A stretch of DNA of 63,407 nucleotides, the filler included, from Asterionella formosa (taxonomy: Eukaryota), in the NCBI GenBank assembly GCA_002256025.1. It is 23 parts of 23 records of this genome, joined end to end, with 100 filler letters (N's around TTAATTAATTAA, not from the genome) between each part and the next. Parts side by side here need not be neighbours in the genome. Positions count along the whole stretch, not along the records: positions 52,244 to 53,395 come from NKIB01004025.1; 22 more parts are not named here. One strand, given 5' to 3'. The notes beneath the pieces were generated by a model that worked only from the letters and a program-made list of their open reading frames with translations, was not told the origin of the DNA and did not search any database. Shown here one piece after another: positions 1,256 to 59,503 of this stretch. Each line of letters begins with the position of its first letter. The first letter of the stretch is position 1. The translations under genes and the position numbers were made by a program.

Positions 1256-2410
1256 TTTTTTTTTGGCTGTTCCAAGGCGCCAGGAGAAAACCTATCCGGC
1301 CGCTTTGCCCGCCTGCCCCATCGATGTGGGGTGCTTGGGGGGCATCATGGGAGGATTCGAACTCCTCCCACCAGTTCATGTGTTCAGGAATGTTTTTGAG
1401 GCACCCCGTCATCCAATCATGTCCCAGTGTCCGGTGAGGCACCCCGCCCCTCTCACCTGGGCGAGGTAGTGTGAGACTTTCACTCACTAAAAACCTGTGT
1501 GCAGCCCCAGTCTTGACCAGTACGCGGTCTGCCCTACCCGTCGGGGCGTTGGCCCGTGGAGGTGTGTGGGACCCCGTCAAATGCCTCACTTGCGTAAGAC
1601 CCCCAACGGGACCTGATTATGTTAGCACGAAGGCTAACAACGCTCATCAGGAACCTGGCAAGGGTGGTGGCCCCTGCCGGGTTCCGTTCCATCTGGCTAC
1701 CGTCCCCATCGGATGATGAGCTGTCAACCGAAGAGTCACAGTTTTGCTGTGCTGTGACTCCGGTTGGTTCGCCCACCATCCATCCATGTACCCAGCGGTT
1801 GTCACAACTCCCTCCGAGGAGCCATGCCAACCGTTGTTGGTCAAAACCGAGGGCGAAATTCGGCCCTAACGTCCGAACTTTCGCGATCAATTCTGCCATG
1901 TGTGGCTCGGTGCGTAGAACACGCCACCGACCACACGTGAACACTAAGTGTTCCAGCGTTTCTGGCTCATCCATACCACAAAATGGACACTTCCTCAAAT
2001 ACCTATGAGGCATTCGCTTCCACCCCACCAAGGTGGGGACAGTTACAAATGCCCCAATCCGACACCGAACTATCAAAGCCAGTCCTGCTTGGTCTTTGGG
2101 ACTGCCCCCCACACGTGACCGTGTGAGTGGATGCTTGTCAAATCCGCCTCCCTCATACCACACTGTGCGGGCCCCCGACGGACGAGTCAAGTTCCGTCGG
2201 ATCCCACACTCTCTCTCCAAAATGCATGCTTTCACTACCTCAGCCAGTACCTTTGGTTCCAGGCTCTGCCATCCAGCACCCAAGTACCTCTCCACAATAG
2301 ACACCGGTGCATGGGGGAGCGCATAGCGTTTCAGCCAGCGCGGAACCCCCGAGCACCATGTCCATTTCTGACTTCGGAATGGTCTTAGGACCAATTCCTG
2401 AAGCCAGGTT
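1256..2410 (-). mobile_element. Second near-identical copy of the LINE 3' end (CDS 1534-2409)
   Basis: Same boundaries as 1-1155; I spotted 3 substitutions. Confidence 0.88.
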
Positions 2411-6546: not shown

Positions 6547-7837
6547 ATGGCTGATGCGGACAATGGAGATTACCAAGGTGGGCCTGGCGGAGGCGACGGC
6601 GCCAATGTTCCCACTGGATCTGTGGCGCTTTTGAGTGATCCCGTGGATGTTATTATTGATAAGCTTCTCAGGTATGTGTGCCGTGAAATCCGAAACCATG
6701 GCCAACGCAACAGGGGCAAGTCACTTGCAAGCTCCAGCGTACCCGCCAGTATCTTTCTCACATGCAAATATGACGTATTGACTGCTTTTTTTACCGTGCC
6801 GACTGACAGGCCGGTCGTCAGCGGCCTTCTTGTTTTTTCCCATTTTCTCCGGCGTTCCTATTTCTTATTCTAATTAACTAACCTCTTCTTCTCCTTCGTA
6901 ATGCTTAAGTGTGAGAGGTGCCCGCCCCGGAAAGCAGGTTGATTTATCAGAAGCCGAGATCAAAATGCTTTGTCTCCGTTCTCGCGATCTGTTGATCGGA
7001 CAACCTATGCTTCTGGAATTGGAAGCCCCCATCAAGATCTGTGGTGACGTGCATGGGCAATACTATGATCTCCTCCGTCTCTTCGAATATGGTGGATTTC
7101 CTCCGGAATCAAATTATGTCTTCCTTGGGGACTACGTTGATCGTGGAAAACAGTCTCTTGAAACGATTTGCCTCCTTTTGGCCTACAAAATCAAGTACCC
7201 TGAGAACTTTTTCGTTCTCCGCGGCAATCATGAATGTGCTTCTATCAACCGTATCTATGGATTTTACGATGAGTGTAAACGACGATTCGGCATCAAACTT
7301 TGGAAGACCTTCACGGATTGCTTCAACTGCCTCCCTTGTGCCGCTGTCATTGACGAGAAGATTTTCTGCATGCACGGTGGCCTGAGCCCAGAACTCACTA
7401 GCCTTGATCAGGTAAAACGCATTGTCCGTCCAACGGATGTTCCCGACACTGGTTTGTTATGTGATTTATTGTGGTCTGATCCAGATAAGGAAATTGACGG
7501 ATGGGGTGAAAACGACAGGGGTGTCTCCTTTACCTTTGGTGAAGACATTGTGGCGCAATTCTTGCACAAGCATGACCTTGATCTCATTTGCCGTGCTCAT
7601 CAAGTTGTGGAAGACGGATACGAGTTTTTTGCGAGACGTCAACTTGTTACGTTGTTCTCTGCTCCGAACTACTGCGGTGAATTCGACAATGCCGGTGCAA
7701 TGATGAGCGTTGATGAGACTTTGATGTGTTCCTTCCAGATTTTGAAACCCGCTGAGAAAAGACAGCGTTTCTCGTACCAGGGTGGAGCACAGGGAAGACC
7801 TGGAACCCCTCAGACGCAAACTGCAGGCGGGCGGTAA
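6547..7837 (+). CDS. PP1: Ser/Thr protein phosphatase PP1 catalytic subunit, 2 exons (6547-6671, 6910-7837), 350 aa
   Basis: Motifs GDVHGQY, GDYVDRG, RGNHE and SAPNYC. A GTATGT...CTAAC...TAAG intron (6672-6909) splices to [15 protein letters not shown], the typical PP1 N-terminus. Confidence 0.97.
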
Positions 7838-21753: not shown

Positions 21754-22277
21754 ATGAATTCTTCGAAAAAGAAGAATTGCAATGACGACAGTAGTGATGA
21801 AGAGTATGGAGTGAGTGAATTCTCATATGTTTCTACATCTTCATCCAATGATCATGGCAATGCCGCTGTCAGTATTGATGGTGCACAGAGAATGAGAGAA
21901 TCCTTTCACACGCATTTCAACAATGTAGCTTTTTGTTTTTTCAATGAAAACCCGGGATCAGGCACAACTCCAGTCAATACCGAAACCGGAACAACAACAG
22001 CATCAAAGAATGAAAAGGTGTGGACAGGTACAACTCCATTCGATCATGCGGAAACCGGAACAACTGGAGCAACGAGGAATGAAAAGGCGTACATAGTTAC
22101 ATCTCCAGTTGATGCCAAAACCGGAACAACAACAGCAACAAGGAATGAAAAGGCGTACACAGGTACAACTCCAGTCAATGCCGAAACCGGAACAACAACA
22201 GCAACAAGGAATGAAAAGGTGGGCACAGGTACAACTCCTGTGGATGTGGAAACTGGAGCAACGACAGCAACAAGGAC
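21754..22277 (+). CDS. Partial ORF with ~5 tandem 60-bp (20-aa) Thr-rich repeats
   Basis: The unit GTTPVNAETGTTTATRNEKA(Y/V) runs from ~21958 to the contig edge with the frame preserved. Confidence 0.5.
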
Positions 22278-33100: not shown

Positions 33101-33780
33101 ATGAACATTGGAAACATTGGTATGGCATTGGCCTTGCTCTTGGCTCACGCTACTGCACAGACTAAGTCGGTAAGTCCGTGATTTCAATTCATGCTTTTTA
33201 ATTGTTTGTTTGCGGAAACAGGAATTAACAGTCTTGGGTGTTTTTCTCATCCAGCCAACAAGCAAGCCTACTAGTTTTCCGACCATCCAGCCAACAAGGA
33301 AGCCAACCACCAAGCCAACAAATTCTCCTACCATCCAGCCCACGACCAAGCCAACCACCAAGCCGACAAGTTTTCCAACCATCCAGCCAACAAGCAAGCC
33401 AAGCACCAAGCCAACTAGTTATCCTACTATCAAGCCCACAACCAAGCCAACTACTTCTCCTACTATCCAGCCCACAAGCAAGCCAACCACCAAGCCAACT
33501 ACTTCTCCTGCCATCTAGCCTACAATCAAAACATCCACCTAGCCAACTAGTTTTCCTACTGAATTTGCGACTTTTGGTTAGACTCCTCTGGCCATGGTGT
33601 TGGTACAATTCCAGATACATGTTCATCAGATCATGAAAAATTTGGGTTGCTGTGCAGCATCTGTCCCCAGTGTTATTAAGTAGTTCTCCTACTATCCAGC
33701 CCACAAGCAAGCCAACTAGTTTTCCTACCATCTAGCCCACAAACAAAACATCCACCAAGCCAATTAGTTTTCCTACTGAA
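33101..33780 (+). pseudogene. Secreted PTxxPT-repeat (mucin-like) protein gene with a premature stop
   Basis: Signal-like exon 33101-33169 (MNIGNIGMALALLLAHATAQ), phase-0 GTAAGT..CAG intron 33170-33221, then [15 protein letters not shown] repeats. TAG at 33516 replaces CAG and the repeats continue beyond it. Confidence 0.6.
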
Positions 33781-34650: not shown

Positions 34651-36027
34651 ATGACAAATCGACCGGAAGAACCTGACAGTTGGGATATCATTGACAATCT
34701 TGATATAGAAGCGGAATAACAGAGCTATTTGTTAATTGCAGCAGTTGCATTATCATTTTTGGAGCCCTATTGACAAAACTTGAAGCCAGTGTGAATTCCA
34801 AAATGGGAGCATCAACAAATTGACTGGAATGAGCATGTCACAAAGCTTCTTCATGAGAAAAGGTTTCATCGTGAATATCGCATGTCTCTTGAAGCTTTCA
34901 ATCAACTACTGGAACTCCTTCAACCTCATGAGAATAGATTTCATCGTGAATATCACATGTCTCTTGAAGCTTTCAATCAACTAATGGAACTCCTTTGACC
35001 ATCTATCACAATTAATGTTTTCAAATCAAATGCAAGTTCTGGTTTATACAGCTCAAATCAGCATATTTATCCTGAGTTGATCCTTTGCCATTGGACTATG
35101 CTGGCTTGCAGGCGGAAACCTCATAGACATTTGTCATGCCTATGGAGTTTCTTATCCATCTGTTTATGCCATCACTAAAACATTCCTTGATGTGGTGAAC
35201 TCCTGCACAGCATTATCACTAAAATTCCCTACAACAAACAAGCAGAAACAAACAGTGATGAATGGATTCCTTGAAAATAGCGAGCAGCAACTATTTTGTG
35301 GAAGCATTGGTGCTTTAGATGGATATTTACAGCCTATTGCAAAACCAAGAAAGAAGGATTGTGATGGCTTCCCTCAAGCATATTGGTCTGAGCATTATAT
35401 GTCAAATGGATTGAATGTTCAAGCTGTTTGTGACAGTAATTGTTATTTCCTATACTTTGGTGTTGTGGCACCAGGAAAATGTACGAAACTTTTTCAGATT
35501 GTATCCAACCTTTGCCCAGGACAATACATAGTATGTGATGTTGCTTACACATTGACTGATCAAGTGCTCTGTCCATTTATTGGAAGTCAAAAGGAATCAA
35601 CAAACAAAGATGTATACAGCTATTTCCTTTCACAATTCTGCATTAGAAATGAGATGATTTTTGGATTGCTCACCAATAAATGGAGGATCACGAGGACATC
35701 CTTGTCCTTCAGGATGAAGAAATCAGTTGCAATTATTTCTGCTTGTGCCCACTTCCACAATTTTTGCCTACTCATGGATGATGATAAAAAGAAAGAACTT
35801 GCTAATGGAATGGAATTTCTGACTAGTTTGGAGCTTGCTGATCCAATGCCCAATGCTCCTCTTGGGTGGGCTTATCTTCCAACTGTCAGGAAGTTGGATG
35901 TAATACAAGGTACTTCACAGATTTGGCAAATTATTCTTGATATTGTCACCAATAATTGGGTTTAGGCAACCTCCAGCTAATGTGTTGTGCCAACAGCATG
36001 AACTGACTGAAATAGGATTAATGTAGC
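34651..36027 (+). pseudogene. Harbinger (DDE_Tnp_4/HARBI1-like) transposase, disrupted
   Basis: FHREYRMSLEAF, IYPEL..WLAGG, IGALDG, GLNVQAVCDS, YIVCDVAY, EMIFGLL.NKWRI, HNFC. Contains stops and a 75-bp internal duplication (34852-35000). Confidence 0.9.
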
Positions 36028-38020: not shown

Positions 38021-39523
38021 TCAATTTTCATTTTCATGTTGTTCTAAATGCGCATGTTGATGTGAGGAGTAATGTCGCAAGGTCACCAATAATGCGGAGA
38101 AAGCATCCGGGTATCCATAACTTCCCTGATCCAATCCATAGCTGAGCAATCTTGCAGCCTCCATCAAATTTTTTCGCAACCGCCTAATCTTGTCCGGTTC
38201 CCTCAGAAGGGCTTCCAACCTTGGTTTCATGCATTTCAATCCGCAATCCCCATCAATTTGAACAACAAAAGAAGTATAGTCAATTCCAGCCATCGTATCA
38301 TTGAAGAATACACCTCGTCCAAAGGGATAGCATCGGCGAATAGAGCTTCTATTTCTATGAAACCAGCTTGACCATCCTTTCTCATCACTAGTGTATTGAA
38401 GAACGACGGGTATGCACCCACTGAGAATGACATCGAAGAACCTCTTCTGGCCAGTGTCGTCACCAGCCAAAATCGGGCAAAATGTAGAGTTTCGATAGAT
38501 GTCCATGGCAATGTCGTGCCTTTTGAGATTCCGGTCATTGGCAGATGTGGATAGGTATATCGGCTTTCCGAAAATATTGTCTCCAAGCAAGGCGGTTGCA
38601 TTTTCAAAAAACTCCATTCTCACCTTTAGGTGTTTTGGAGTTCCCATAATAGCAGCAAGGCCGTAGAAACGATGTCGATCCAGCCACCAAGATCTGGATA
38701 ATGCATTCAGATTATTGGGCTGATATTCGGAATCAGTATTGACGTAAGGGACGACAAGTGAACCACAGTTACCATTAACGTCCATTCCTTGCTTGCGGCA
38801 ACCATCAGCGGGACCAAGGGAAAGGTGAAGGGGGGTCTTTTTGCGTAATGGGGGGTTGGCTAGGTTCCAGTCTGATCCAAATATAAACAAGTGCTTGGAT
38901 GTATAGTTTTTGAAATATTCCATTCGCTCGATTATTTCCTTGTCGATGAATTTGTATGAATACGAGCACATGATCTTTGTCGGATTATTTTGCCGACATA
39001 AGCAATGTGACTTGTGGGGATACGGGACAATGAAAATGTCGGCTTCCCTTGGGTCCTTCGTAACGTACTCGTAGCTCAGGAACCGCTTCAATAATACGAC
39101 ATCGTTATTGAAATTGGTTCGATACAGGTTGTAGAAAGGAAATGTCCCTGATGAGTTTTCGTTGCAAATTAGTGGTTCCCATCCGCAATTGTTGGACTTG
39201 TCTGCGTTATATTTGCTGTCAATGCATGTCGATACAGCGTGAATGCTGAATTCTTCTGCAAATGATTCATAAATGAACAATTTCAGAGGCGGTTTGCTCA
39301 GCCATTCACTTAGATGAGGGGAGTCTCGATAGAGCAGCTTTGTTGTCTGTCGCCAGACCGAGTCAATGTCAGTTCGCTTTCGCTTTTCCAATGGCGAATC
39401 GTCAATTCTGGCGTCATTTTCCCAATGAACAAGACGAAGTGCATTCAAGTAGAAACGGATAGCGCACGCAGAGAAAACCAATGCAGCCACCTCAAGCCAC
39501 CGTCGGTCAAGCACCATTGCCAT
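38021..39523 (-). CDS. Exostosin-family (GT47) glycosyltransferase, type II membrane protein, 500 aa
   Basis: N-terminal TM, LKLFIYE, TKDPREADIFIVPY, STFCPILAGD...KRFFDVILSGCIPVV. Confidence 0.9.
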   Translation of the reverse strand: MAMVLDRRWLEVAALVFSACAIRFYLNALRLVHWENDARIDDSPLEKRKRTDIDSVWRQTTKLLYRDSPHLSEWLSKPPLKLFIYESFAEEFSIHAVSTCIDSKYNADKSNNCGWEPLICNENSSGTFPFYNLYRTNFNNDVVLLKRFLSYEYVTKDPREADIFIVPYPHKSHCLCRQNNPTKIMCSYSYKFIDKEIIERMEYFKNYTSKHLFIFGSDWNLANPPLRKKTPLHLSLGPADGCRKQGMDVNGNCGSLVVPYVNTDSEYQPNNLNALSRSWWLDRHRFYGLAAIMGTPKHLKVRMEFFENATALLGDNIFGKPIYLSTSANDRNLKRHDIAMDIYRNSTFCPILAGDDTGQKRFFDVILSGCIPVVLQYTSDEKGWSSWFHRNRSSIRRCYPFGRGVFFNDTMAGIDYTSFVVQIDGDCGLKCMKPRLEALLREPDKIRRLRKNLMEAARLLSYGLDQGSYGYPDAFSALLVTLRHYSSHQHAHLEQHENEN

Positions 39524-39994: not shown

Positions 39995-40867
39995 ATGAAT
40001 GCAAAAGTTATTTATATAAGGATTGGAATCGTATCTGCCATTGCATTGTTAACAGGCCTGTCTATTTATTGCAGCACACAGATTAGCGGTAGTGTTGAAT
40101 CTGGCCAAAGCTTGGCCCCGATAGACGATGTTCCACGCATTATTATGCAACGTCCACGGAGAGTGCGACCTGTCAAACCTGAATCTAGCTGGCAGCAGAC
40201 AGTTCGATTGATCTACGCAGATTCACCCAATCTCCAACGATGGCTGGACGATGAGCCACTGAAGGTCTACATATACGACACGCTAGATGAACAACTCTCG
40301 ATCCAAAACATATCTCAATGCATTGAGCAACGCTTCGCTGTGTCTACAATAAAATGTGGCTACTACCCAAAGATTTGTAACGCTTCCGACAGCGGCATCC
40401 TGGGGAAATTTCACAATAATTACAACTCAGATGTGGTGACAATAAAGCGCTTCTTAGAATATCCTCACCAGACCAAGGATCCACAGGAGGCTGATTTGTT
40501 TTTCGTCCCATACCCGCATAAGTCGCACTGCCTCTGTCACCAGAAGGACTTCACCAGGACTAGGTGCAAATTCAACATAAAATGGATTCGTGAGCATGTA
40601 CTGGATCGATTGTTGTACTACAATTCAACCACTAAAGTCAAGCATCTATTTGTCTTGGGGTCTGACTATGAGCAATCGAATCCACCTTTTCGACGAGAAA
40701 TAGCAATGGACATTTCACTAGGACCAGCTGGAGGGTGTCGACCGAATCGTCATTCCAAAGGCAAGCATTGGAGTGAGATTTGTGGAAGCTTTACAATGCC
40801 CTATATCAATACCATGGCTGATGTGCAACCAAGTGCAGTGGCAGCCTTGTCCAAAGGGTGGTGGGTT
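39995..40867 (+). CDS. Exostosin-family (GT47) paralog, 3'-truncated by the contig end
   Basis: N-terminal TM, LKVYIYD, TKDPQEADLFFVPYPHKSHCLC; colinear with the 38021-39523 protein. Confidence 0.88.
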
Positions 40868-41610
40868 NNNNNNNNNNNNNNNNNNNNNNNNNNNNNNNNN
40901 NNNNNNNNNNNTTAATTAATTAANNNNNNNNNNNNNNNNNNNNNNNNNNNNNNNNNNNNNNNNNNNNCCACTGTATGATGTAAAACTCAAACAGACACGC
41001 AAGGGATTGGCAGACATTTGAGATACAAAGCAGGAAGAAAGGGCAATATACATCAATCACGACCGTCGATCTCATGAAATCTCGTTGTGCCCAATATTAT
41101 TCCCATAGTGTAATTTGCGATATGCGCTGTTCTATGGCGATCGCTGGGCAAACATGTCAAGTTTTTCGGAATTGAATGTATCAGTCGACGCCGATGCATT
41201 TATTACACATAGGGACCAATTTTGATATTTTGGTGAGACTATCAGGTCGACAGTCATTTTGCCGCTATGTGTTCGTGATTGTCGAAATTTCCAAACGACA
41301 GCGGTGCTGCTGTACGTAAGTACCAGGTAGCATGCTCTGTATTTATAACTGTACTTTGGTATTTTGATCGTATACACATACACTAGCCACCTACTGGTAA
41401 TTGTCTCGATGAAGCTACACACACAGTGTTCTACAGTACCGGTAGTACTACTAACAACGATTATTTCCATGATTTTATTTCATGACATAATTTCTTGTTT
41501 GAAAATATTTCATTGATCTGTTGATTCCTGTGGTACCCGTACTCATGCTCCTAAAGTAGTACATTCTTCTCTTGCTCTCAATTATCAAACGCAAGACACG
41601 CACGCCCCCC

Positions 41611-44725: not shown

Positions 44726-45878
44726 GTACAAGGCTGCCAAAGAGAGGGCGCGGAAGGTGATCCGCCTCTCGGGTAGGCGGGCATGGTATAAGGCAATTAG
44801 GGAGGCTCACGTCAATATGCGCGAGAAACCTCGCCACTATTGGCGGTGGGCCTCAGCGACTGCAGGATGGCGCCAGAAGAGCAGCATCGCAGGTGTCCAA
44901 CCGGTCCTTGGCCCGGACGGACGCCTGCTGCCAGCTTTGACTGATATTCATCAGGCCTGGGGAGCGCACTATGCCTCTCTAGCAGCAGATGAAACCGGTC
45001 ATAGCCAGGAGGCCCAATATTGGGAGAAATTTGACCCGCACCCACAGGCAAATGAGGGGATCCGTTCGCTGGACGAACCCTTCACAACCTCCGATATTTG
45101 GACTGCCCTGAGGAAGATGAAGAGCCATCGTGCTCCGGGCGGTGACGGGATACCCACTGAACTGCTACAGGCATGTTTGGCGGAGGAACGGGCCCTACTT
45201 TCCCACCTTCAAAACTATCGGGAAGAGGAGCCCGCCCCGCCACCATCCGCTCCAATGACGGACTCACTAGGAACCCTACTCAACTTTGCGTATGAGAGGG
45301 GACTGGTGGCCCAGTCGTGGGCTGAGTCACTGGTCGTCTCAATACCTAAGAAAGGGGACTTGGCTGATATGAACAACTATCGGGGGATTTCGCTCATGGC
45401 CACTGTCCTCAAGGTGGTGTGTGTGATCCTTGGTACCAGGATAAATGTGGAAGCGGAATCTCGAGGGCTGTTTAGCCGAGCCCAGGCTGGCTTTCGCCAG
45501 AGAGAGGAATGTGTAACCCAGGTAGCCTGTGTCATGGAAATCATACAACGCCGGAGGATAGTGGGAGAGCCGACCTACGTGGTATTCGTAGACCTCAAGA
45601 AGGCATATGATACGGTGCCCCACGAGGCGCTCTTTGCGAAACTATCCAGGTTTGGGATCAGGGGACGTTGCCTTGCTTTTCTACGTGCCCTTTATCGCAG
45701 CAGTACAATCAGGGTACGAGTGGGGGGTGGCTTGACTGCCCTGTACTCGGACCCCTGCAGACTGTTGCGAGGTGTGCGGCAGGGTTGCCCTCTTTCGCCT
45801 ATACTGTTCAACATCTTCATTGATGACTTGGCAGTGGGGACGGAGGAGAGCGGTGCCCTGGTACCAACTGGGGACAGT
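44726..45878 (+). mobile_element. LINE ORF2 reverse transcriptase fragment, copy 1
   Basis: RAPGGDGIP, IPKKGD...NYRGISL, QAGFR, FVDLKKAYDTV, RGVRQGCPLSPILFNIFIDDL; open across the whole contig. Confidence 0.96.
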
Positions 45879-45978
45879 NNNNNNNNNNNNNNNNNNNNNN
45901 NNNNNNNNNNNNNNNNNNNNNNTTAATTAATTAANNNNNNNNNNNNNNNNNNNNNNNNNNNNNNNNNNNNNNNNNNNN

Positions 45979-47131
45979 GTACAAGGCTGCCAAAGAGAGG
46001 GCGCGGAAGGTGATCCGCCTCTCGGGTAGGCGGGCATGGTATAAGGCAATTAGGGAGGCTCACGTCAATATGCGCGAGAAACCTCGCCACTATTGGCGGT
46101 GGGCCTCAGCGACTGCAGGATGGCGCCAGAAGAGCAGCATCGCAGGTGTCCAACCGGTCCTTGGCCCGGATGGACGCCTGCTGCCAGCTTTGACTGATAT
46201 TCATCAGGCCTGGGGAGCGCACTATGCCTCTCTAGCAGCAGATGAAACCGGTCATAGCCAGGAGGCCCAATATTGGGAGAAATTTGACCCGCACCCACAG
46301 GCAAATGAGGGGATCCGTTCGCTGGACGAACCCTTCACAACCTCCGATATTTGGACTGCCCTGAGGAAGATGAAGAGCCATCGTGCTCCGGGCGGTGACG
46401 GGATACCCACTGAACTGCTACAGGCATGTTTGGCGGAGGAACGGGCCCTACTTTCCCACCTTCAAAACTATCGGGAAGAGGAGCCCGCCCCGCCACCATC
46501 CGCTCCAATGACGGACTCACTAGGAACCCTACTCAACTTTGCGTATGAGAGGGGACTGGTGGCCCAGTCGTGGGCTGAGTCACTGGTCGTCTCAATACCT
46601 AAGAAAGGGGACTTGGCTGATATGAACAACTATCGGGGGATTTCGCTCATGGCCACTGTCCTCAAGGTGGTGTGTGTGATCCTTGGTACCAGGATAAATG
46701 TGGAAGCGGAATCTCGAGGGCTGTTTAGCCGAGCCCAGGCTGGCTTTCGCCAGAGAGAGGAATGTGTAACCCAGGTAGCCTGTGTCATGGAAATCATACA
46801 ACGCCGGAGGATAGTGGGAGAGCCGACCTACGTGGTATTCGTAGACCTCAAGAAGGCATATGATACGGTGCCCCACGAGGCGCTCTTTGCGAAACTATCC
46901 AGGTTTGGGATCAGGGGACGTTGCCTTGCTTTTCTACGTGCCCTTTATCGCAGCAGTACAATCAGGGTACGAGTGGGGGGTGGCTTGACTGCCCTGTACT
47001 CGGACCCCTGCAGACTGTTGCGAGGTGTGCGGCAGGGTTGCCCTCTTTCGCCTATACTGTTCAACATCTTCATTGATGACTTGGCAGTGGGGACGGAGGA
47101 GAGCGGTGCCCTGGTACCAACTGGGGACAGT
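45979..47131 (+). mobile_element. LINE RT fragment, copy 2
   Basis: Near-identical to copy 1, same ends. Confidence 0.96.
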
Positions 47132-47231
47132 NNNNNNNNNNNNNNNNNNNNNNNNNNNNNNNNNNNNNNNNNNNNTTAATTAATTAANNNNNNNNNNNNN
47201 NNNNNNNNNNNNNNNNNNNNNNNNNNNNNNN

Positions 47232-48384
47232 ACTGTCCCCAGTTGGTACCAGGGCACCGCTCTCCTCCGTCCCCACTGCCAAGTCATCAATGAAGATGTT
47301 GAACAGTATAGGCGAAAGAGGGCAACCCTGCCGCACACCTCGCAACAGTCTGCAGGGGTCCGAGTACAGGGCAGTCAAGCCACCCCCCACTCGTACCCTG
47401 ATTGTACTGCTGCGATAAAGGGCACGTAGAAAAGCAAGGCAACGTCCCCTGATCCCAAACCTGGATAGTTTCGCAAAGAGCGCCTCGTGGGGCACCGTAT
47501 CATATGCCTTCTTGAGGTCTACGAATACCACGTAGGTCGGCTCTCCCACTATCCTCCGGCGTTGTATGATTTCCATGACACAGGCTACCTGGGTTACACA
47601 TTCCTCTCTCTGGCGAAAGCCAGCCTGGGCTCGGCTAAACAGCCCTCGAGATTCCGCTTCCACATTTATCCTGGTACCAAGGATCACACACACCACCTTG
47701 AGGACAGTGGCCATGAGCGAAATCCCCCGATAGTTGTTCATATCAGCCAAGTCCCCTTTCTTAGGTATTGAGACGACCAGTGACTCAGCCCACGACTGGG
47801 CCACCAGTCCCCTCTCATACGCAAAGTTGAGTAGGGTTCCTAGTGAGTCCGTCATTGGAGCGGATGGTGGCGGGGCGGGCTCCTCTTCCCGATAGTTTTG
47901 AAGGTGGGAAAGTAGGGCCCGTTCCTCCGCCAAACATGCCTGTAGCAGTTCAGTGGGTATCCCGTCACCGCCCGGAGCACGATGGCTCTTCATCTTCCTC
48001 AGGGCAGTCCAAATATCGGAGGTTGTGAAGGGTTCGTCCAGCGAACGGATCCCCTCATTTGCCTGTGGGTGCGGGTCAAATTTCTCCCAATATTGGGCCT
48101 CCTGGCTATGACCGGTTTCATCTGCTGCTAGAGAGGCATAGTGCGCTCCCCAGGCCTGATGAATATCAGTCAAAGCTGTCAGCAGGCGGCCGTCCGGGCC
48201 AAGGACCGGTTGGACACCTGCGATGCTGCTCTTCTGGCGCCATCCTGCAGTCGCTGAGGCCCACCGCCAATAGTGGCGAGGTTTCTCGCGCATATTGACG
48301 TGAGCCTCCCTAATTGCCTTATACCATGCCCGCCTACCCGAGAGGCGGATCACCTTCCGCGCCCTCTCTTTGGCAGCCTTGTAC
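47232..48384 (-). mobile_element. LINE RT fragment, copy 3
   Basis: Reverse complement of copy 1 with a few SNPs. Confidence 0.96.
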
Positions 48385-48484
48385 NNNNNNNNNNNNNNNN
48401 NNNNNNNNNNNNNNNNNNNNNNNNNNNNTTAATTAATTAANNNNNNNNNNNNNNNNNNNNNNNNNNNNNNNNNNNNNNNNNNNN

Positions 48485-49637
48485 ACTGTCCCCAGTTGGT
48501 ACCAGGGCACCGCTCTCCTCCGTCCCCACTGCCAAGTCATCAATGAAGATGTTGAACAGTATAGGCGAAAGAGGGCAACCCTGCCGCACACCTCGCAACA
48601 GTCTGCAGGGGTCCGAGTACAGGGCAGTCAAGCCACCCCCCACTCGTACCCTGATTGTACTGCTGCGATAAAGGGCACGTAGAAAAGCAAGGCAACGTCC
48701 CCTGATCCCAAACCTGGATAGTTTCGCAAAGAGCGCCTCGTGGGGCACCGTATCATATGCCTTCTTGAGGTCTACGAATACCACGTAGGTCGGCTCTCCC
48801 ACTATCCTCCGGCGTTGTATGATTTCCATGACACAGGCTACCTGGGTTACACATTCCTCTCTCTGGCGAAAGCCAGCCTGGGCTCGGCTAAACAGCCCTC
48901 GAGATTCCGCTTCCACATTTATCCTGGTACCAAGGATCACACACACCACCTTGAGGACAGTGGCCATGAGCGAAATCCCCCGATAGTTGTTCATATCAGC
49001 CAAGTCCCCTTTCTTAGGTATTGAGACGACCAGTGACTCAGCCCACGACTGGGCCACCAGTCCCCTCTCATACGCAAAGTTGAGTAGGGTTCCTAGTGAG
49101 TCCGTCATTGGAGCGGATGGTGGCGGGGCGGGCTCCTCTTCCCGATAGTTTTGAAGGTGGGAAAGTAGGGCCCGTTCCTCCGCCAAACATGCCTGTAGCA
49201 GTTCAGTGGGTATCCCGTCACCGCCCGGAGCACGATGGCTCTTCATCTTCCTCAGGGCAGTCCAAATATCGGAGGTTGTGAAGGGTTCGTCCAGCGAACG
49301 GATCCCCTCATTTGCCTGTGGGGGCGGGTCAAATTTCTCCCAATATTGGGCCTCCTGGCTATGACCGGTTTCATCTGCTGCTAGAGAGGCATAGTGCGCT
49401 CCCCAGGCCTGATGAATATCAGTCAAAGCTGTCAGCAGGCGTCCATCCGGGCCAAGGACCGGTTGGACACCTGCGATGCTGCTCTTCTGGCGCCATCCTG
49501 CAGTCGCTGAGGCCCACCGCCAATAGTGGCGAGGTTTCTCGCGCATATTGACGTGAGCCTCCCTAATTGCCTTATACCATGCCCGCCTACCCGAGAGGCG
49601 GATCACCTTCCGCGCCCTCTCTTTGGCAGCCTTGTAC
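48485..49637 (-). mobile_element. LINE RT fragment, copy 4
   Basis: Reverse complement of copy 1 with a few SNPs. Confidence 0.96.
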
Positions 49638-49737
49638 NNNNNNNNNNNNNNNNNNNNNNNNNNNNNNNNNNNNNNNNNNNNTTAATTAATTAANNNNNNN
49701 NNNNNNNNNNNNNNNNNNNNNNNNNNNNNNNNNNNNN

Positions 49738-50890
49738 ACTGTCCCCAGTTGGTACCAGGGCACCGCTCTCCTCCGTCCCCACTGCCAAGTCATCAATGAA
49801 GATGTTGAACAGTATAGGCGAAAGAGGGCAACCCTGCCGCACACCTCGCAACAGTCTGCAGGGGTCCGAGTACAGGGCAGTCAAGCCACCCCCCACTCGT
49901 ACCCTGATTGTACTGCTGCGATAAAGGGCACGTAGAAAAGCAAGGCAACGTCCCCTGATCCCAAACCTGGATAGTTTCGCAAAGAGCGCCTCGTGGGGCA
50001 CCGTATCATATGCCTTCTTGAGGTCTACGAATACCACGTAGGTCGGCTCTCCCACTATCCTCCGGCGTTGTATGATTTCCATGACACAGGCTACCTGGGT
50101 TACACATTCCTCTCTCTGGCGAAAGCCAGCCTGGGCTCGGCTAAACAGCCCTCGAGATTCCGCTTCCACATTTATCCTGGTACCAAGGATCACACACACC
50201 ACCTTGAGGACAGTGGCCATGAGCGAAATCCCCCGATAGTTGTTCATATCAGCCAAGTCCCCTTTCTTAGGTATTGAGACGACCAGTGACTCAGCCCACG
50301 ACTGGGCCACCAGTCCCCTCTCATACGCAAAGTTGAGTAGGGTTCCTAGTGAGTCCGTCATTGGAGCGGATGGTGGCGGGGCGGGCTCCTCTTCCCGATA
50401 GTTTTGAAGGTGGGAAAGTAGGGCCCGTTCCTCCGCCAAACATGCCTGTAGCAGTTCAGTGGGTATCCCGTCACCGCCCGGAGCACGATGGCTCTTCATC
50501 TTCCTCAGGGCAGTCCAAATATCGGAGGTTGTGAAGGGTTCGTCCAGCGAACGGATCCCCTCATTTGCCTGTGGGTGCGGGTCAAATTTCTCCCAATATT
50601 GGGCCTCCTGGCTATGACCGGTTTCATCTGCTGCTAGAGAGGCATAGTGCGCTCCCCAGGCCTGATGAATATCAGTCAAAGCTGTCAGCAGGCGGCCATC
50701 CGGGCCAAGGACCGGTTGGACACCTGCGATGCTGCTCTTCTGGCGCCATCCTGCAGTCGCTGAGGCCCACCGCCAATAGTGGCGAGGTTTCTCGCGCATA
50801 TTGACGTGAGCCTCCCTAATTGCCTTATACCATGCCCGCCTACCCGAGAGGCGGATCACCTTCCGCGCCCTCTCTTTGGCAGCCTTGTAC
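49738..50890 (-). mobile_element. LINE RT fragment, copy 5
   Basis: Reverse complement of copy 1 with a few SNPs. Confidence 0.96.
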
Positions 50891-50990
50891 NNNNNNNNNN
50901 NNNNNNNNNNNNNNNNNNNNNNNNNNNNNNNNNNTTAATTAATTAANNNNNNNNNNNNNNNNNNNNNNNNNNNNNNNNNNNNNNNNNNNN

Positions 50991-52143
50991 ACTGTCCCCA
51001 GTTGGTACCAGGGCACCGCTCTCCTCCGTCCCCACTGCCAAGTCATCAATGAAGATGTTGAACAGTATAGGCGAAAGAGGGCAACCCTGCCGCACACCTC
51101 GCAACAGTCTGCAGGGGTCCGAGTACAGGGCAGTCAAGCCACCCCCCACTCGTACCCTGATTGTACTGCTGCGATAAAGGGCACGTAGAAAAGCAAGGCA
51201 ACGTCCCCTGATCCCAAACCTGGATAGTTTCGCAAAGAGCGCCTCGTGGGGCACCGTATCATATGCCTTCTTGAGGTCTACGAATACCACGTAGGTCGGC
51301 TCTCCCACTATCCTCCGGCGTTGTATGATTTCCATGACACAGGCTACCTGGGTTACACATTCCTCTCTCTGGCGAAAGCCAGCCTGGGCTCGGCTAAACA
51401 GCCCTCGAGATTCCGCTTCCACATTTATCCTGGTACCAAGGATCACACACACCACCTTGAGGACAGTGGCCATGAGCGAAATCCCCCGATAGTTGTTCAT
51501 ATCAGCCAAGTCCCCTTTCTTAGGTATTGAGACGACCAGTGACTCAGCCCACGACTGGGCCACCAGTCCCCTCTCATACGCAAAGTTGAGTAGGGTTCCT
51601 AGTGAGTCCGTCATTGGAGCGGATGGTGGCGGGGCGGGCTCCTCTTCCCGATAGTTTTGAAGGTGGGAAAGTAGGGCCCGTTCCTCCGCCAAACATGCCT
51701 GTAGCAGTTCAGTGGGTATCCCGTCACCGCCCGGAGCACGATGGCTCTTCATCTTCCTCAGGGCAGTCCAAATATCGGAGGTTGTGAAGGGTTCGTCCAG
51801 CGAACGGATCCCCTCATTTGCCTGTGGGTGCGGGGCAAATTTCTCCCAATATTGGGCCTCCTGGCTATGACCGGTTTCATCTGCTGCTAGAGAGGCATAG
51901 TGCGCTCCCCAGGCCTGATGAATATCAGTCAAAGCTGTCAGCAGGCGTCCATCCGGGCCAAGGACCGGTTGGACACCTGCGATGCTGCTCTTCTGGCGCC
52001 ATCCTGCAGTCGCTGAGGCCCACCGCCAATAGTGGCGAGGTTTCTCGCGCATATTGACGTGAGCCTCCCTAATTGCCTTATACCATGCCCGCCTACCCGA
52101 GAGGCGGATCACCTTCCGCGCCCTCTCTTTGGCAGCCTTGTAC
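50991..52143 (-). mobile_element. LINE RT fragment, copy 6
   Basis: Reverse complement of copy 1 with a few SNPs. Confidence 0.96.
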
Positions 52144-52243: not shown

Positions 52244-53395
52244 TCTACTGTTGGCTACTGTTGTACATTCACTAACTTTTACAATTTGATCCTTTCCCTT
52301 CAGGCTACCAAGGCTCCAACACCTCCAGTTGTTCCTGCAACCAAGGTATGTAGCTAGTTATAGTGACAAAGCACCTTGCTTGACGGTATTTTTCTGCAGA
52401 TTTGTCCAAGAATACCATGGAGTTCTTTGGTCTAAAGATCCGCAAGTAATCGGGTTCATGCAATACTGCAATGTGATTTGACTCTATTGTGACTAATCTA
52501 AAGCATATTCATTCTCTTACAACAGCCTCCCAAGGGTACCAAGGCTCCCAAGGTATGTCCATCACCTTGCTTGATGTATTGGCATCATCATAAAATCGTA
52601 CCATGGGGAACTTTGCTCCCAAATTTATGTAAACTTTCACATGCGCTAGTATTGCAATGTGAAATGGTTATGCTGTCATGACTAACACCCATATTTTGAT
52701 TTCACTGTACAATCTACCTTTTTCTGAGCAGGGACCTACTGCAGGTACTAGAGACCTCAAAGAAAAGGTATGTTGTGGTACTAGCTGAAAGCCACATTCA
52801 CACATGCCTGTGACTCATCCAAACTGTTGTGTGTATCATCATGTCTACTGTCGGCTACTGTTGTACATTCACTAACTTTTACAATTTGATCCTTTACCTT
52901 CAGGCTACCAAGGCTCCAACACCTTTAGTTGTTCCTGCAACCAAGGTATGTAGCTAGTTATAGTGACAAAGCACCTTGCTTGACGGTATTTTTCTGCAGA
53001 TTTGTCCAAGAATACCATGGAGTTCTTTGGTCTAAAGATCCGCAAGTAATCGGGTTCATGCAATACTGCAATGTGATTTGACTCTATTGTGACTAACCTA
53101 AAGCATATTCATTCTTTTACAACAGCCTCCCAAGGGTACCAAGGCTCCCAAGGTATGTCCATCACCTTGCTTGATGTATTGGCATCATCATAAAATCGTA
53201 CCATGGGGAACTTTGCTCCCAAATTTATGTAAACTTTCACATGCGCTAGTATTGCAATGTCAATTGGTTTATGCTGTCATGACTAACACCCATATTTTGA
53301 TTTCACTGTACAATCTACCTTTTTCTGAGCAGGGACCTACTGCAGGTACTAGAGACCTCAAAGAAAAGGTATGTTGTGGTACTAGCTGAAAGCCA
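52244..53395. repeat. 600-bp tandem repeat, ~1.9 units visible
   Basis: 52244-52843 is nearly identical to 52844-53395. Confidence 0.97.
52304..53368 (+). CDS. Internal part of a micro-exon gene (52304-52345, 52526-52552, 52732-52767, 52904-52945, 53126-53152, 53333-53368) encoding a KXXK/RXL repeat protein
   Basis: Each exon is flanked by ACTAA(C/T)...CAG and AAG|GTATGT. Lengths are 42/27/36 nt. Spliced unit: ATKAPTPPVVPATK-PPKGTKAPK-GPTAGTRDLKEK, twice. Confidence 0.8.
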
Positions 53396-53497
53396 NNNNN
53401 NNNNNNNNNNNNNNNNNNNNNNNNNNNNNNNNNNNNNNNTTAATTAATTAANNNNNNNNNNNNNNNNNNNNNNNNNNNNNNNNNNNNNNNNNNNNCA

Positions 53498-54647
53498 ATC
53501 ATTTTCACCGAGCATTCCAAAGATGTTCAAGGAGATCACGATAAGGGTGACGCTGTTGCAGCCACTGCTGGTGTTGAATCGACTGAAGTCAGAAGATCCA
53601 CTTTCATTGGAAACACATCGTCTACTGCTTTTCACCCTTCTGCTTCAGAGGACGAACGCCTTCAAGATATACATCAATCCTTTCTTGATACTACAGCTAC
53701 TGATGATACGTCGCCTACACCTGTCATGGAGGGCATCGGTTGTCATAATGGCCTTGTTACGTTGTCTACTCCCAGTGTGCAAGTCAGGGAATATACTGAT
53801 ACAGCTGGAACAGTTGAATGTGAAAGTGTCAGTGAGTCGCTTGAACACGCCATATTCTCCCCGAAGAGGACCGCGACCATATTTGCATTCTATGAACCCT
53901 CAAGCACGTCCACGAAGCATTCAGAAGCTGATCACGGCGATGACGTGGAGCGTGATGTTCATGGAGGTGACACGGACAGTGGCAGTGTTGCAACCGCTAC
54001 AACTGCTGAATCCAATAATGTCAGAAAGGCCATTTCCATTGATGAGAAAACGTCGACTGCTACTCCTCCCCCTTCTACGTCGGTGCATGAACGTGACGAT
54101 AATGTTGTGGCTGAAGTGTTTAGAGACACTGCTGCTGCCGATGATACGCCGCTGACCGTCGTCAACAATTGCAATGGTTGTCACGAAGGCACGAGTACTT
54201 TGGCTATTCCATGTACAAGCGAGGAAGGTGGAGAATATACAAAATCTTCCCAGAAGAGCACAATTTTTTCGTTCTATGAACCTACAATCATTTTCACCGA
54301 GCATTCCAAAGATGTTCAAGGAGATCACGATAAGGGTGACGCTGTTGCAGCCACTGCTGGTGTTGAATCGACTGAAGTCAGAAGATCCACTTTCATTGGA
54401 AACACATCGTCTACTGCTTTTCACCCTTCTGCTTCAGAGGACGAACGCCTTCAAGATATACATCAACCCTTTCTTGGTACTACAGCTACTGATGATACGT
54501 CGCCTACACCTGTCATGGAGGGCATCGGTTGTCATAATGGCCTTGATACGTTGTCTACTCCCAGTGTGCAAGTCAGGGAACATGCCACATCTTCCAAAAA
54601 GCGAACCACTTTTGCTTTCTATGAACCTACACTCTCTTTAGCGAAAC
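53498..54647 (+). CDS. Internal fragment of an acidic Ser/Thr-rich protein with a 789-bp (263-aa) repeat period
   Basis: The frame is open across the contig. 53496-53790 recurs at 54285-54579; the F(A/S)FYEP motif appears three times. Confidence 0.65.
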
Positions 54648-58400: not shown

Positions 58401-58500
58401 NNNNNNNNNNNNNNNNNNNNNNNNNNNNNNNNNNNNNNNNNNNNTTAATTAATTAANNNNNNNNNNNNNNNNNNNNNNNNNNNNNNNNNNNNNNNNNNNN

Positions 58501-59503
58501 ACATGACATCTGACAATGTATATGCTGCATCACCAACAAGATAAAAACCAGAATCATATAATGCAGTTTTGTTGGGTAGAGCAGTTCTCTCAAATGCAAC
58601 TTGATCACTGCATCGTCCAGGAGCAATCACCCCAAAAAATATAAATCTACTCTCAACATCACAGATAGCCTGAACATTGATACCATAAGTCATGTAATGT
58701 CCAGAATAAAAAGCTCCTGGATTGTTTCCACAGTCACGTAGCGTGGGGCGACTAATTGTGGCTAAAAAACCATCAATAGCACCAACACACCCTCTGATCA
58801 ACCCTTCTGTGCTCTTTTGTTCAAAGGCTATAGCCAATTTCACCAAATCACTCCTCGTTTTAGGAAATATAATTTTCAGATAATCACAGTTAAGCACGGC
58901 TTCAAGAAATAAATCTCGGCATCTATAGATTGAAGCTATGCTACATCCATAGGCATGACGAATGTCAATGTAGCTGCCTCCAGCCAACCATCGAATGCCA
59001 ATGGCCAGCACAATTTCTGGGTAAATGGGAGTAGCTGTACCGCACTTGGAGAAATTCCCAATGACATCACTCTCCAGTAAGTAAACCAACTTCTTAAAGG
59101 CTCGAAGGGACATTCTATAAGTCTTTTCAAAAGCGTCCTCATGACACAGCTTCTTGACATGAGAATGCCATGACATTCTCTCGTGCTCCCATTTCGCCTT
59201 CCTCTTTTTAACTTTCGTTTCAGCCTCCAGAGCCAGATGACAAAGGATAAAGAAATGATCATGGTCATCGTAATCAAAGAATTGATGGTTGTTTTCATTA
59301 TCAAAAAATTGATTACTGATGACATCATTACCATCATCATCATTGCCATCGTTGATATTCACGGCACCTTCTTCAGTCCAATGTTGATCCACTTGTTCGT
59401 CATTGTGCACTGACAATGATGACATGGTGCTGATTGCTTGTAAACTTGAAAGGGGATGATGGCAAGCGGAAGTGTAAGAAGAAGTGTATAGAGGATCTTG
59501 CAT
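58501..59503 (-). mobile_element. Harbinger (DDE_Tnp_4) transposase, uninterrupted, 3'-partial
   Basis: FEKTYRMS, IYPEIVLAIGIRWLAGGSY, GCVGAIDG, GINVQAICD, YLVGDAAY. Confidence 0.93.

Follow-up and report, generated by a model that had tools for sequence, protein, structure and literature searches.

The contig at positions 52244..53395 (1152 bp, plus strand) of the window analysed here, a 63,407-base stretch of DNA from the assembly of Asterionella formosa, is a fragment of a real, spliced diatom nuclear gene composed of tandem modules of ~600 bp, each with three symmetric, phase-0 micro-exons. Across the variants observed, exon A measures 42 nt, exon B 27 or 36 nt and exon C 33, 36 or 45 nt, and the exons are joined in the order A-B-C and then to the A of the next module. 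The predicted spliced product is a repetitive, strongly basic protein, rich in Pro, Lys, Thr and Ala and arranged in repeats of ~35 residues. Its motifs suggest, by analogy and with a probability that we put at roughly 0.45, that the gene works like a diatom wall-protein precursor of the type carrying Arg-X-Leu (RXL) sites. The gene cannot be filed as a silaffin.

The window comprises 23 contigs joined by spacers (44 N + TTAATTAATTAA + 44 N), two of them of ~18.5 kb and 21 of 1149-1155 bp, seemingly ordered by size. Adjacency of contigs within the window therefore has no biological meaning and supplies no genomic context for 52244-53395.

Architecture of the tandem module

The contig is bounded by N spacers on both sides and holds 1.92 copies of a unit of 600/601 bp. 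At this spacing the copies are 98% identical over 300 nt and 100% identical over 127 nt, and the alignment of unit 1 with unit 2 shows 9 differing columns and one 1-nt indel. Exons and introns are alike ~98% similar, as in a young repeat, so that conservation within the contig is uninformative. That the introns of adjacent modules are nearly identical points to recent unequal crossing-over or concerted evolution, through which the count and mix of peptide variants are easily changed. Since RNA contigs show several further unit variants, the contig is a piece of a longer, more varied module array. Rfam returned no matches for the whole window.

Unit 1 contains micro-exon A at 52304..52345 (42 nt, ATKAPTPPVVPATK), micro-exon B at 52526..52552 (27 nt, PPKGTKAPK) and micro-exon C at 52732..52767 (36 nt, GPTAGTRDLKEK, including the tripeptide RDL). 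The corresponding exons of unit 2, all likewise on the plus strand, are A at 52904..52945 (42 nt, ATKAPTPLVVPATK), differing by a CC>TT change that replaces Pro with Leu, B at 53126..53152 (27 nt, PPKGTKAPK) and C at 53333..53368 (36 nt). The sequence-only reading had proposed a 600-bp unit with exons of 42, 27 and 36 nt, each ending in AAG, followed by GTATGT and preceded by a branch site and CAG. All six exons bear this out: CAG stands before, AAG at the end and GTATGT after each of them, all are in phase 0, and CTAAC or CTAAT lies upstream, the distance from branch A to exon being 29, 30 or 47 nt.

Intron 1 (180 nt, GTATGT...ACTAAT...CAG) spans 52346..52525, with a second copy of 180 nt at 52946-53125. 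Intron 2 (GTATGT...ACTAAC...CAG) spans 52553..52731 (179 nt) and recurs at 53153-53332 (180 nt), where it is open in frame and gives rise to a 95-residue read-through open reading frame (ORF). Intron 3 (136 nt, GTATGT...ACTAAC...CAG; 52768..52903) links one unit to the next, and partial copies of it form the contig ends at 52244-52303 and 53369-53395. Exons and introns differ in GC content (0.53 versus 0.38).

These signals are concentrated in the contig and on one strand. Of the plus-strand motifs in the window, the contig, with 1.9% of the bases, has 6 of 27 GTATGT and 5 of 11 ACTAAC; neither motif occurs on the contig's minus strand. When the window was scanned in full, on both strands, for CTAA[CT], AG, an exon with a length of 15-63 nt divisible by 3, and GTATGT, 12 candidates emerged, every one of which belongs to the six micro-exons; the combination is absent from both strands of the remaining 61.5 kb. 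The signals also resemble those of the PP1 catalytic subunit gene (6547-7837, plus strand), whose one intron (6670-6904, mapped with transcript-derived homologues) reads AG/GTATGTG...AACTAAC...TTAAG/. Because this intron shares GTATGT and AACTAAC, the micro-exon signals are the organism's normal ones, as judged from a sample of one intron. The units being copies, only three of the exons are independent, and it is therefore the RNA evidence that decides whether the splicing is real.

Transcript evidence for splicing

DNA of the unit is present in 14 DNA runs of 12 studies, mostly freshwater or lake metagenomes together with one 'algae metagenome', at 0.41-0.65 of the sampled words, and several RNA runs contain ~0.2 of the sampled words. 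RNA from four runs of four studies was mapped to the contig: the metatranscriptomes X15, X16 and X17 and the polyA transcriptome X22, whose sample is also the one in which DNA of the unit was best represented. All RNA data were assembled contigs, compared at a likeness threshold of 90 with joint sides of 22-38 letters. Joint sides shorter than 30 letters at a likeness below 95 can mislead, and RNA libraries may contain DNA.

The RNA contigs cover the exons and end at or leap over the predicted borders, those of all four runs ending or joining at 52302/52345-52346 around the first exon A. Joints between separated positions fell at predicted exon borders in eight of nine rows, allowing for the 1-2 nt that match on either side. 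A-B joints lead from 52345/6 to 52523-52530 (X15, X17) or to 53127 in unit 2 (X22); B-C joints run from 52553 to 52747 in X17 and from 53153 to 53348 in X22. The passage from exon C into the next unit is represented by a joint that 'goes back' from 53369 to 52308 in X17, and C-A join letters occur in X16 as well. One row leads from exon A to exon C of unit 2 with 35 letters between, which correspond to a variant exon B lengthened by nine bases. The remaining row (X16, 52353 to 53064) lies inside introns and was rejected as a splice; it is probably a unit variant or a repeat mis-join.

Letters lying between joints read as in-frame variant exons, namely two of 33 nt (GPTEGTRDLKK and ETSETRDLKEK), one of 45 nt, in which ATT is added before GPTAGTRDLKEK, and one of 27 nt (PPKATKGPK). 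The RNA contigs also contain a common exon A variant with Ala in place of Pro (52322 C>G). The summed word depth in X15 is ~70,000-94,000 over exon A and ~160 over intron 1; in X22 it is 535-765 and 0, respectively. Contigs of X16 extend over introns at a depth of 5-25 and may derive from pre-mRNA or from carried-over DNA. Abundant mRNA is found in lake metatranscriptomes and in the polyA library, contig depth being a poor measure of expression. Taken together, the agreement of four studies and the in-frame variant exons outweigh the cautions that attach to RNA contigs on the question of whether the gene is spliced. The order, borders and frame of splicing foreseen from the sequence are those found in the transcripts.

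The suggestion that exons could be skipped combinatorially fared differently. None of the nine joint rows from the four runs skips an exon, in contigs that drop rare forms; variation between units in sequence and length, together with partial intron retention, was seen instead. The loose-end letters of the mRNA, both upstream and downstream, gave no matches in the window, which places the 5' and 3' exons outside it.

Public protein collections hold further traces of the gene. The queries were the window's own intron read-through ORFs rather than the spliced peptide, so that negative results are weak. The 95-residue ORF at 53102-53386, consisting of exon B, the open intron 2 and exon C, retrieved five proteins from 1.84 billion representatives: P0121, P0122 and P0123-P0125, the last three of which were set aside as unrelated repeat proteins (TPR-like and others). 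A 47-residue ORF containing exon A had no match among proteins of at least 84 residues. Compared with proteins of near length, P0121 matched only itself, P0122 and P0126. These three are nameless ORFs from public contigs (JGI, ENA) no longer than 1466 nt. As the sequence-only reading had anticipated, ORF finders miss the gene, standard ORF calling giving only nameless intron read-through ORFs.

P0122 represents a variant unit in which introns 3 and 1 are read through; its order is the intron-2 tail, GPTEGTRDLKK, 48 codons of intron 3, ASKAPTAPVVPVTK and the intron-1 head, and the intron-3 block begins with VC (from GTATGT) and ends with Q (from CAG). P0121 is the P0122 unit minus exactly this 48-codon block (VC...PQ). 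P0126 is the same variant unit with intron 3 kept, intron 1 gone and a 36-nt exon B, continuing as ...VTK, PPKATKGPKAPK and the intron-2 head. That intron-2 head also occurs in the polyA run X22, in a loose end behind 53193, and the variant unit is thus present in the same sample as the window's units. By their sequences, P0121, P0122 and P0126 look like partly spliced transcripts that support the C-A and A-B junctions, with the caveat that P0121 and P0126 might be genomic copies each without one intron, their JGI sources not being labelled as RNA.

That the splice signals resemble real ones by chance in a tandem repeat, or that the contig is an assembly artefact, might be suspected from the number of independent exons and from a short contig enclosed by spacers. 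This explanation is refuted by the RNA joints of four runs from four studies, the P0121 and P0126 ORFs and the splice-signal scan, and the occurrence of the unit DNA across 12 studies also argues against it; we regard its probability as negligible.

Reading frame and predicted protein

Since every exon length is divisible by 3, it is sequence beyond the contig that sets the frame. A stop in exon C closes frame +2, while frames 0 and +1 stay open in every exon. Between exons B and C of the contig and their RNA variants there are seven substitutions, of which four are synonymous third-position changes in frame 0 and none in frame +1. All exon length variants (27/36 and 33/36/45 nt) keep the frame, and an X22 loose end behind 53369, after the last exon C, continues for one more codon and then closes with TGA in frame 0. 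Frame 0, the frame originally proposed, is the best supported.

These observations also bear on whether the locus encodes a protein at all. A spliced non-coding repeat transcript, derived from a satellite or a transposon, could carry an open frame as a by-product of low complexity; the openness of two frames out of three, and the equal likeness of exons and introns in a young repeat, would suit such an origin. The synonymous substitutions confined to frame 0, the length variants in multiples of 3, the closure of the frame one codon past the last unit in a polyA contig and the higher GC content of the exons all argue in the opposite direction, and we consider a non-coding transcript very unlikely.

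In frame 0, the two units give 70 residues, with Pro 21%, Lys 20%, Thr 17%, Ala 14% and Gly 9% (Lys, Ala, Pro and Thr together 73%), and with no Ser, Cys or aromatic residue; a single Ser (ASKAP...) appears in the variant units. The net charge is +6 per 35-residue unit, and the encoded protein is probably disordered. Translation returns the repeating 35-mer described in the sequence-only reading, with its RDL and the KXXK motifs KATK, KPPK, KGTK and KAPK in each unit; the 70 residues contain seven overlapping KXXK. The one Arg, the one Leu and all acidic residues of a unit lie in a short charged linker, T-R-D-L-K-E-K. The RDL of this linker is found in both units of the window and in P0121, P0122 and P0126, and it is kept in four of five exon-C variants. 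Ahead of a first exon A, the upstream mRNA letters read ...S-E-Q-K-R-V-L-K followed by A-T-K, with RVL present in loose ends of both X22 and X17.

A composition of this kind, without Ser, Cys or aromatic residues and dominated by Pro, Thr, Ala and Lys, would also fit a secreted mucin- or extensin-like glycoprotein of an organic casing, of mucilage pads or of an adhesive, which would be heavily O-glycosylated or hydroxylated, would remain intact or become cross-linked, and would have no role in silica, RDL being incidental or a maturation site only. The very high abundance of the transcript is as expected for a structural protein, and a second Thr/Pro/Lys-rich repeat ORF in the assembly (33174-33518) suggests that such proteins are common in the organism. 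Against this stand the pairing of each unit's only Arg and Leu as R-x-L, its retention in most exon-C variants, the RVL before the first unit and the regular K-x-x-K spacing kept across variants. A glycoprotein of this type is rather unlikely.

The charge of the units and their 73% of Lys, Ala, Pro and Thr could, alternatively, belong to an intracellular basic disordered protein, chromatin-associated or nucleolar, with a repeat like a histone H1 tail and no secretion; consistent with this, the upstream mRNA contains an in-frame ATG followed by polar, non-hydrophobic sequence. Histone H1 tails, however, are roughly 40% Lys, compared with 20% here. The frame is, moreover, still open upstream of the ATG for two visible letters, with 93 further letters upstream, and every unit carries the R-D-L linker, which corresponds to a secretory processing motif of diatoms (PMC4557024). 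This intracellular alternative appears improbable.

A candidate RXL-type wall-protein precursor

According to the review PMC4557024, Sil1p consists of repeat units that lose a C-terminal RRIL or RRNL, RXL at the repeat ends of silaffins, frustulins, cingulins and silacidins is regarded as a probable general endopeptidase processing signal, and KXXK is a likely recognition motif for lysine modification. PMC5501833 describes a screen for silaffin-like proteins built on a signal peptide, KXXK with X = S/G and motifs 1-6 residues apart, RXL and a pentalysine cluster, the latter, after Poulsen 2013, being a stretch of 12-14 residues with five non-consecutive Lys, and notes PT repeats in TpSIL1 and in 14 silaffin-like or KXXK proteins (PMC5501833).

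Of these features, the gene shares RXL, which stands at the unit ends and before the first unit; KXXK occurs four times per unit, in its loose form only. The P0126 variant unit, in which the end of exon A meets a 36-nt exon B, places 5 Lys, counted by eye, within 13 residues (K-PP-K-AT-K-GP-K-AP-K) and so reaches the pentalysine definition.

Several observations weigh against a wall-precursor role, and some of them limit the sense in which the product is silaffin-like, as the sequence-only reading had it; that description holds for the RXL ends, loosely for the KXXK motifs, and fails on composition and on the stricter forms of the motifs. The X positions of KXXK are A/T, P/P, G/T and A/P, so that the strict form with S or G is absent, and the pentalysine definition is reached in the P0126 variant unit only, the window's units having at most 4 Lys in 12-14 residues. 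Another screen, that of Scheffel, reportedly looked for high serine together with high lysine content. The 70 residues contain 14 Lys and no Ser, whereas silaffins are Ser/Lys-rich and phosphorylated. One exon-C RNA variant, ...TTNPKK, is without RXL (X15 loose end, agreement 0.74). No signal peptide was seen, in a contig without the 5' end and with the last 30 of 123 upstream mRNA letters visible from a 159-nt polyA contig of X22; these letters read ...M-T-S-E-Q-K-R-V-L-K, and if that Met were the start, the protein would have none. Finally, no named homologous protein was found with the read-through ORFs as queries, a weak negative.

If the gene does work as an RXL-type wall-protein precursor, its product would most likely be secreted via the endoplasmic reticulum, by analogy with Sil1p, silacidins and cingulins. 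Cleavage after the RXL of each linker would then yield lysine-rich peptides that resemble one another and bear modifications on their KXXK lysines, and these peptides may finally be deposited within the silica wall or on its surface.

A bolder proposal, which we consider doubtful, is that the locus represents an unannotated class of diatom wall-precursor genes. Each RXL-released, Lys-rich peptide would come from its own ~600-bp module of three micro-exons, and unequal crossing-over between the near-identical introns would expand, contract and shuffle the modules. The array would thereby form an evolvable cassette library of silica-shaping peptides, with room for regulated skipping or intron retention, unseen by annotation based on ORFs and homology. 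Among the wall transcripts of a common freshwater diatom, one of the most abundant would thus have been overlooked.

Host and other features of the assembly

The first 18.5-kb contig encodes a PP1 protein with 98% identity to that of Nitzschia sp. Nitz4 and 95% to that of Cyclotella meneghiniana (EukProt names); its identity to unnamed transcriptome proteins is 96-99%, compared with 82-86% for fungi, animals and other stramenopiles. Identity of 95-98% to named diatom proteins identifies the assembly as that of a diatom, in keeping with the silicifying host that had been presumed, PP1 being too conserved to point to a genus. The contig 52244-53395 is assigned to the same organism because it belongs to the same assembly, has a similar composition (GC content ~0.40) and shows the same splice signals. 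Searched in the Atlas, a GT47 protein gave a mixture of clusters from Streptophyta, Bacillariophyta, Chlorophyta and Haptophyta and did not resolve the taxon. That protein family is represented in the window by two divergently oriented paralogous genes, at 38021-39523 (minus strand), encoding 500 residues with an Exostosin_GT47 domain, and at 39995-40915 (plus strand), whose likeness to its neighbour was recognized by eye (motif ...VPYPHKSHCLC...) and which leaves the contig end.

Other repetitive coding sequences are present. The Thr/Pro/Lys-rich ORF at 33174-33518 (plus strand) has a 48-nt period with 6.6 copies and apparently an intron before it; it is mucin- or PT-repeat-like and is not split into micro-exons. 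At 21959-22276 (plus strand), a 66-nt tandem repeat of 4.8 copies forms an open frame of TGTTPVNAETGTTTATRNEKAY-type units that leaves the contig end. The contig adjoining the micro-exon contig in the window (53496-54647, plus strand) is a single open frame of 419 codons, acidic and Ser/Thr-rich, without a Pfam match; it contains a long direct repeat, with IIFTEHSKDVQGDHDKGD...DERLQDIHQ occurring twice, ~760 bp apart.

Mobile elements account for further parts of the window. Six near-identical contigs of 1153 bp at 44726-52143, in both orientations, share the same open frame of 389-414 residues with a reverse transcriptase domain (RVT_1, E 1.5e-22); with a GC content of ~0.53 versus ~0.39 elsewhere, they represent a high-copy retroelement collapsed into contigs of equal length. 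Near-identical ORFs of 286 residues on two contigs, at 279-1139 and 1534-2394 (minus strand), have a Cys/His-rich patch, a GC content of 0.54 and no Pfam match, and are probably another retroelement part. ORFs at 35192-35965 (plus strand) and 58445-59503 (minus strand) contain DDE_Tnp_4, as in Harbinger/PIF-like transposases (E 8e-16 and 9e-12). In a metagenome collection, the sole exact match of a 21-nt piece of exon A (L001, 3001-3021) was dismissed as chance; it lies on a bacterial-looking contig, at the Walker-A-like GTTGSGK site of a long ORF on the minus strand (read by eye).

Comparison with known systems

Diatom silica-forming proteins are defined by motif rather than by homology, and few are known beyond two or three marine model species. 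The locus described here, missed by standard annotation, yields a very abundant transcript in a lake diatom and offers a testable candidate with defined junction peptides and RXL ends. Repetitive micro-exon genes collapse into contigs of ~1 kb and drop out of gene catalogues and of the databases used for frustule proteomes. The tandem-module build also suggests unequal recombination as a simple route by which peptide number and mix may change.

The closest parallels in predicted organization are the precursors of Sil1p from Cylindrotheca fusiformis, of silacidins and of cingulins, which, as described in PMC4557024, likewise consist of short Lys-rich tandem units ending in R-x-L, with RXL also before the first unit and with KXXK lysines. 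The likeness extends to the proposed outcome, several similar peptides from one precursor. There is no detectable sequence kinship with these proteins; the window's units are Ser-free and rich in Pro, Thr and Ala, whereas silaffins are Ser-rich and phosphorylated. In genomic form, the repeat is a module of three micro-exons and three introns, a structure for which our literature search found no description in silaffin genes. The silaffin-like and KXXK proteins of Thalassiosira pseudonana resemble the window protein in being classed by composition and motifs, among them KXXK, RXL, pentalysine clusters and PT repeats, but the screen that defines them demands both a signal peptide and S or G as the X of KXXK (PMC5501833).

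In architecture, the gene resembles the micro-exon genes (MEGs) of Schistosoma mansoni, in which coding sequence lies mostly in very short symmetric exons (3-81 bp; bioRxiv 10.1101/2023.06.21.545858), compared with 27-45 nt here. With exons of 42, 27 and 36 nt and variants of 33, 36 and 45 nt, the window gene shows this arrangement of symmetric exons of at most 81 bp, and the symmetry means that the loss of any one exon would leave the frame intact. Exon skipping is a source of variation in MEG products, which none of the nine joint rows displays here. In bioRxiv 10.1101/2023.06.21.545858, MEG introns reach 5 kb and the exons are not tandem copies, whereas the introns of the window gene measure 136-180 nt and its exon-intron triplets stand head to tail. 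MEGs are genes of an animal parasite, and the likeness is one of architecture only.

Two further systems, from unrelated organisms and with unrelated proteins, serve as analogies only. The spider flagelliform silk gene is built of head-to-tail modules of exon plus intron, with introns kept nearly identical through concerted evolution, and the notothenioid antifreeze glycoprotein (AFGP) genes encode one precursor that is cut at short spacers into many similar peptides. A tandem three-micro-exon module architecture was not described for diatoms in the literature searched. We thus rate as known the repetitive diatom wall precursor with RXL and KXXK motifs, and as new its tandem three-micro-exon modules and its Ser-free, Pro/Thr-rich composition.

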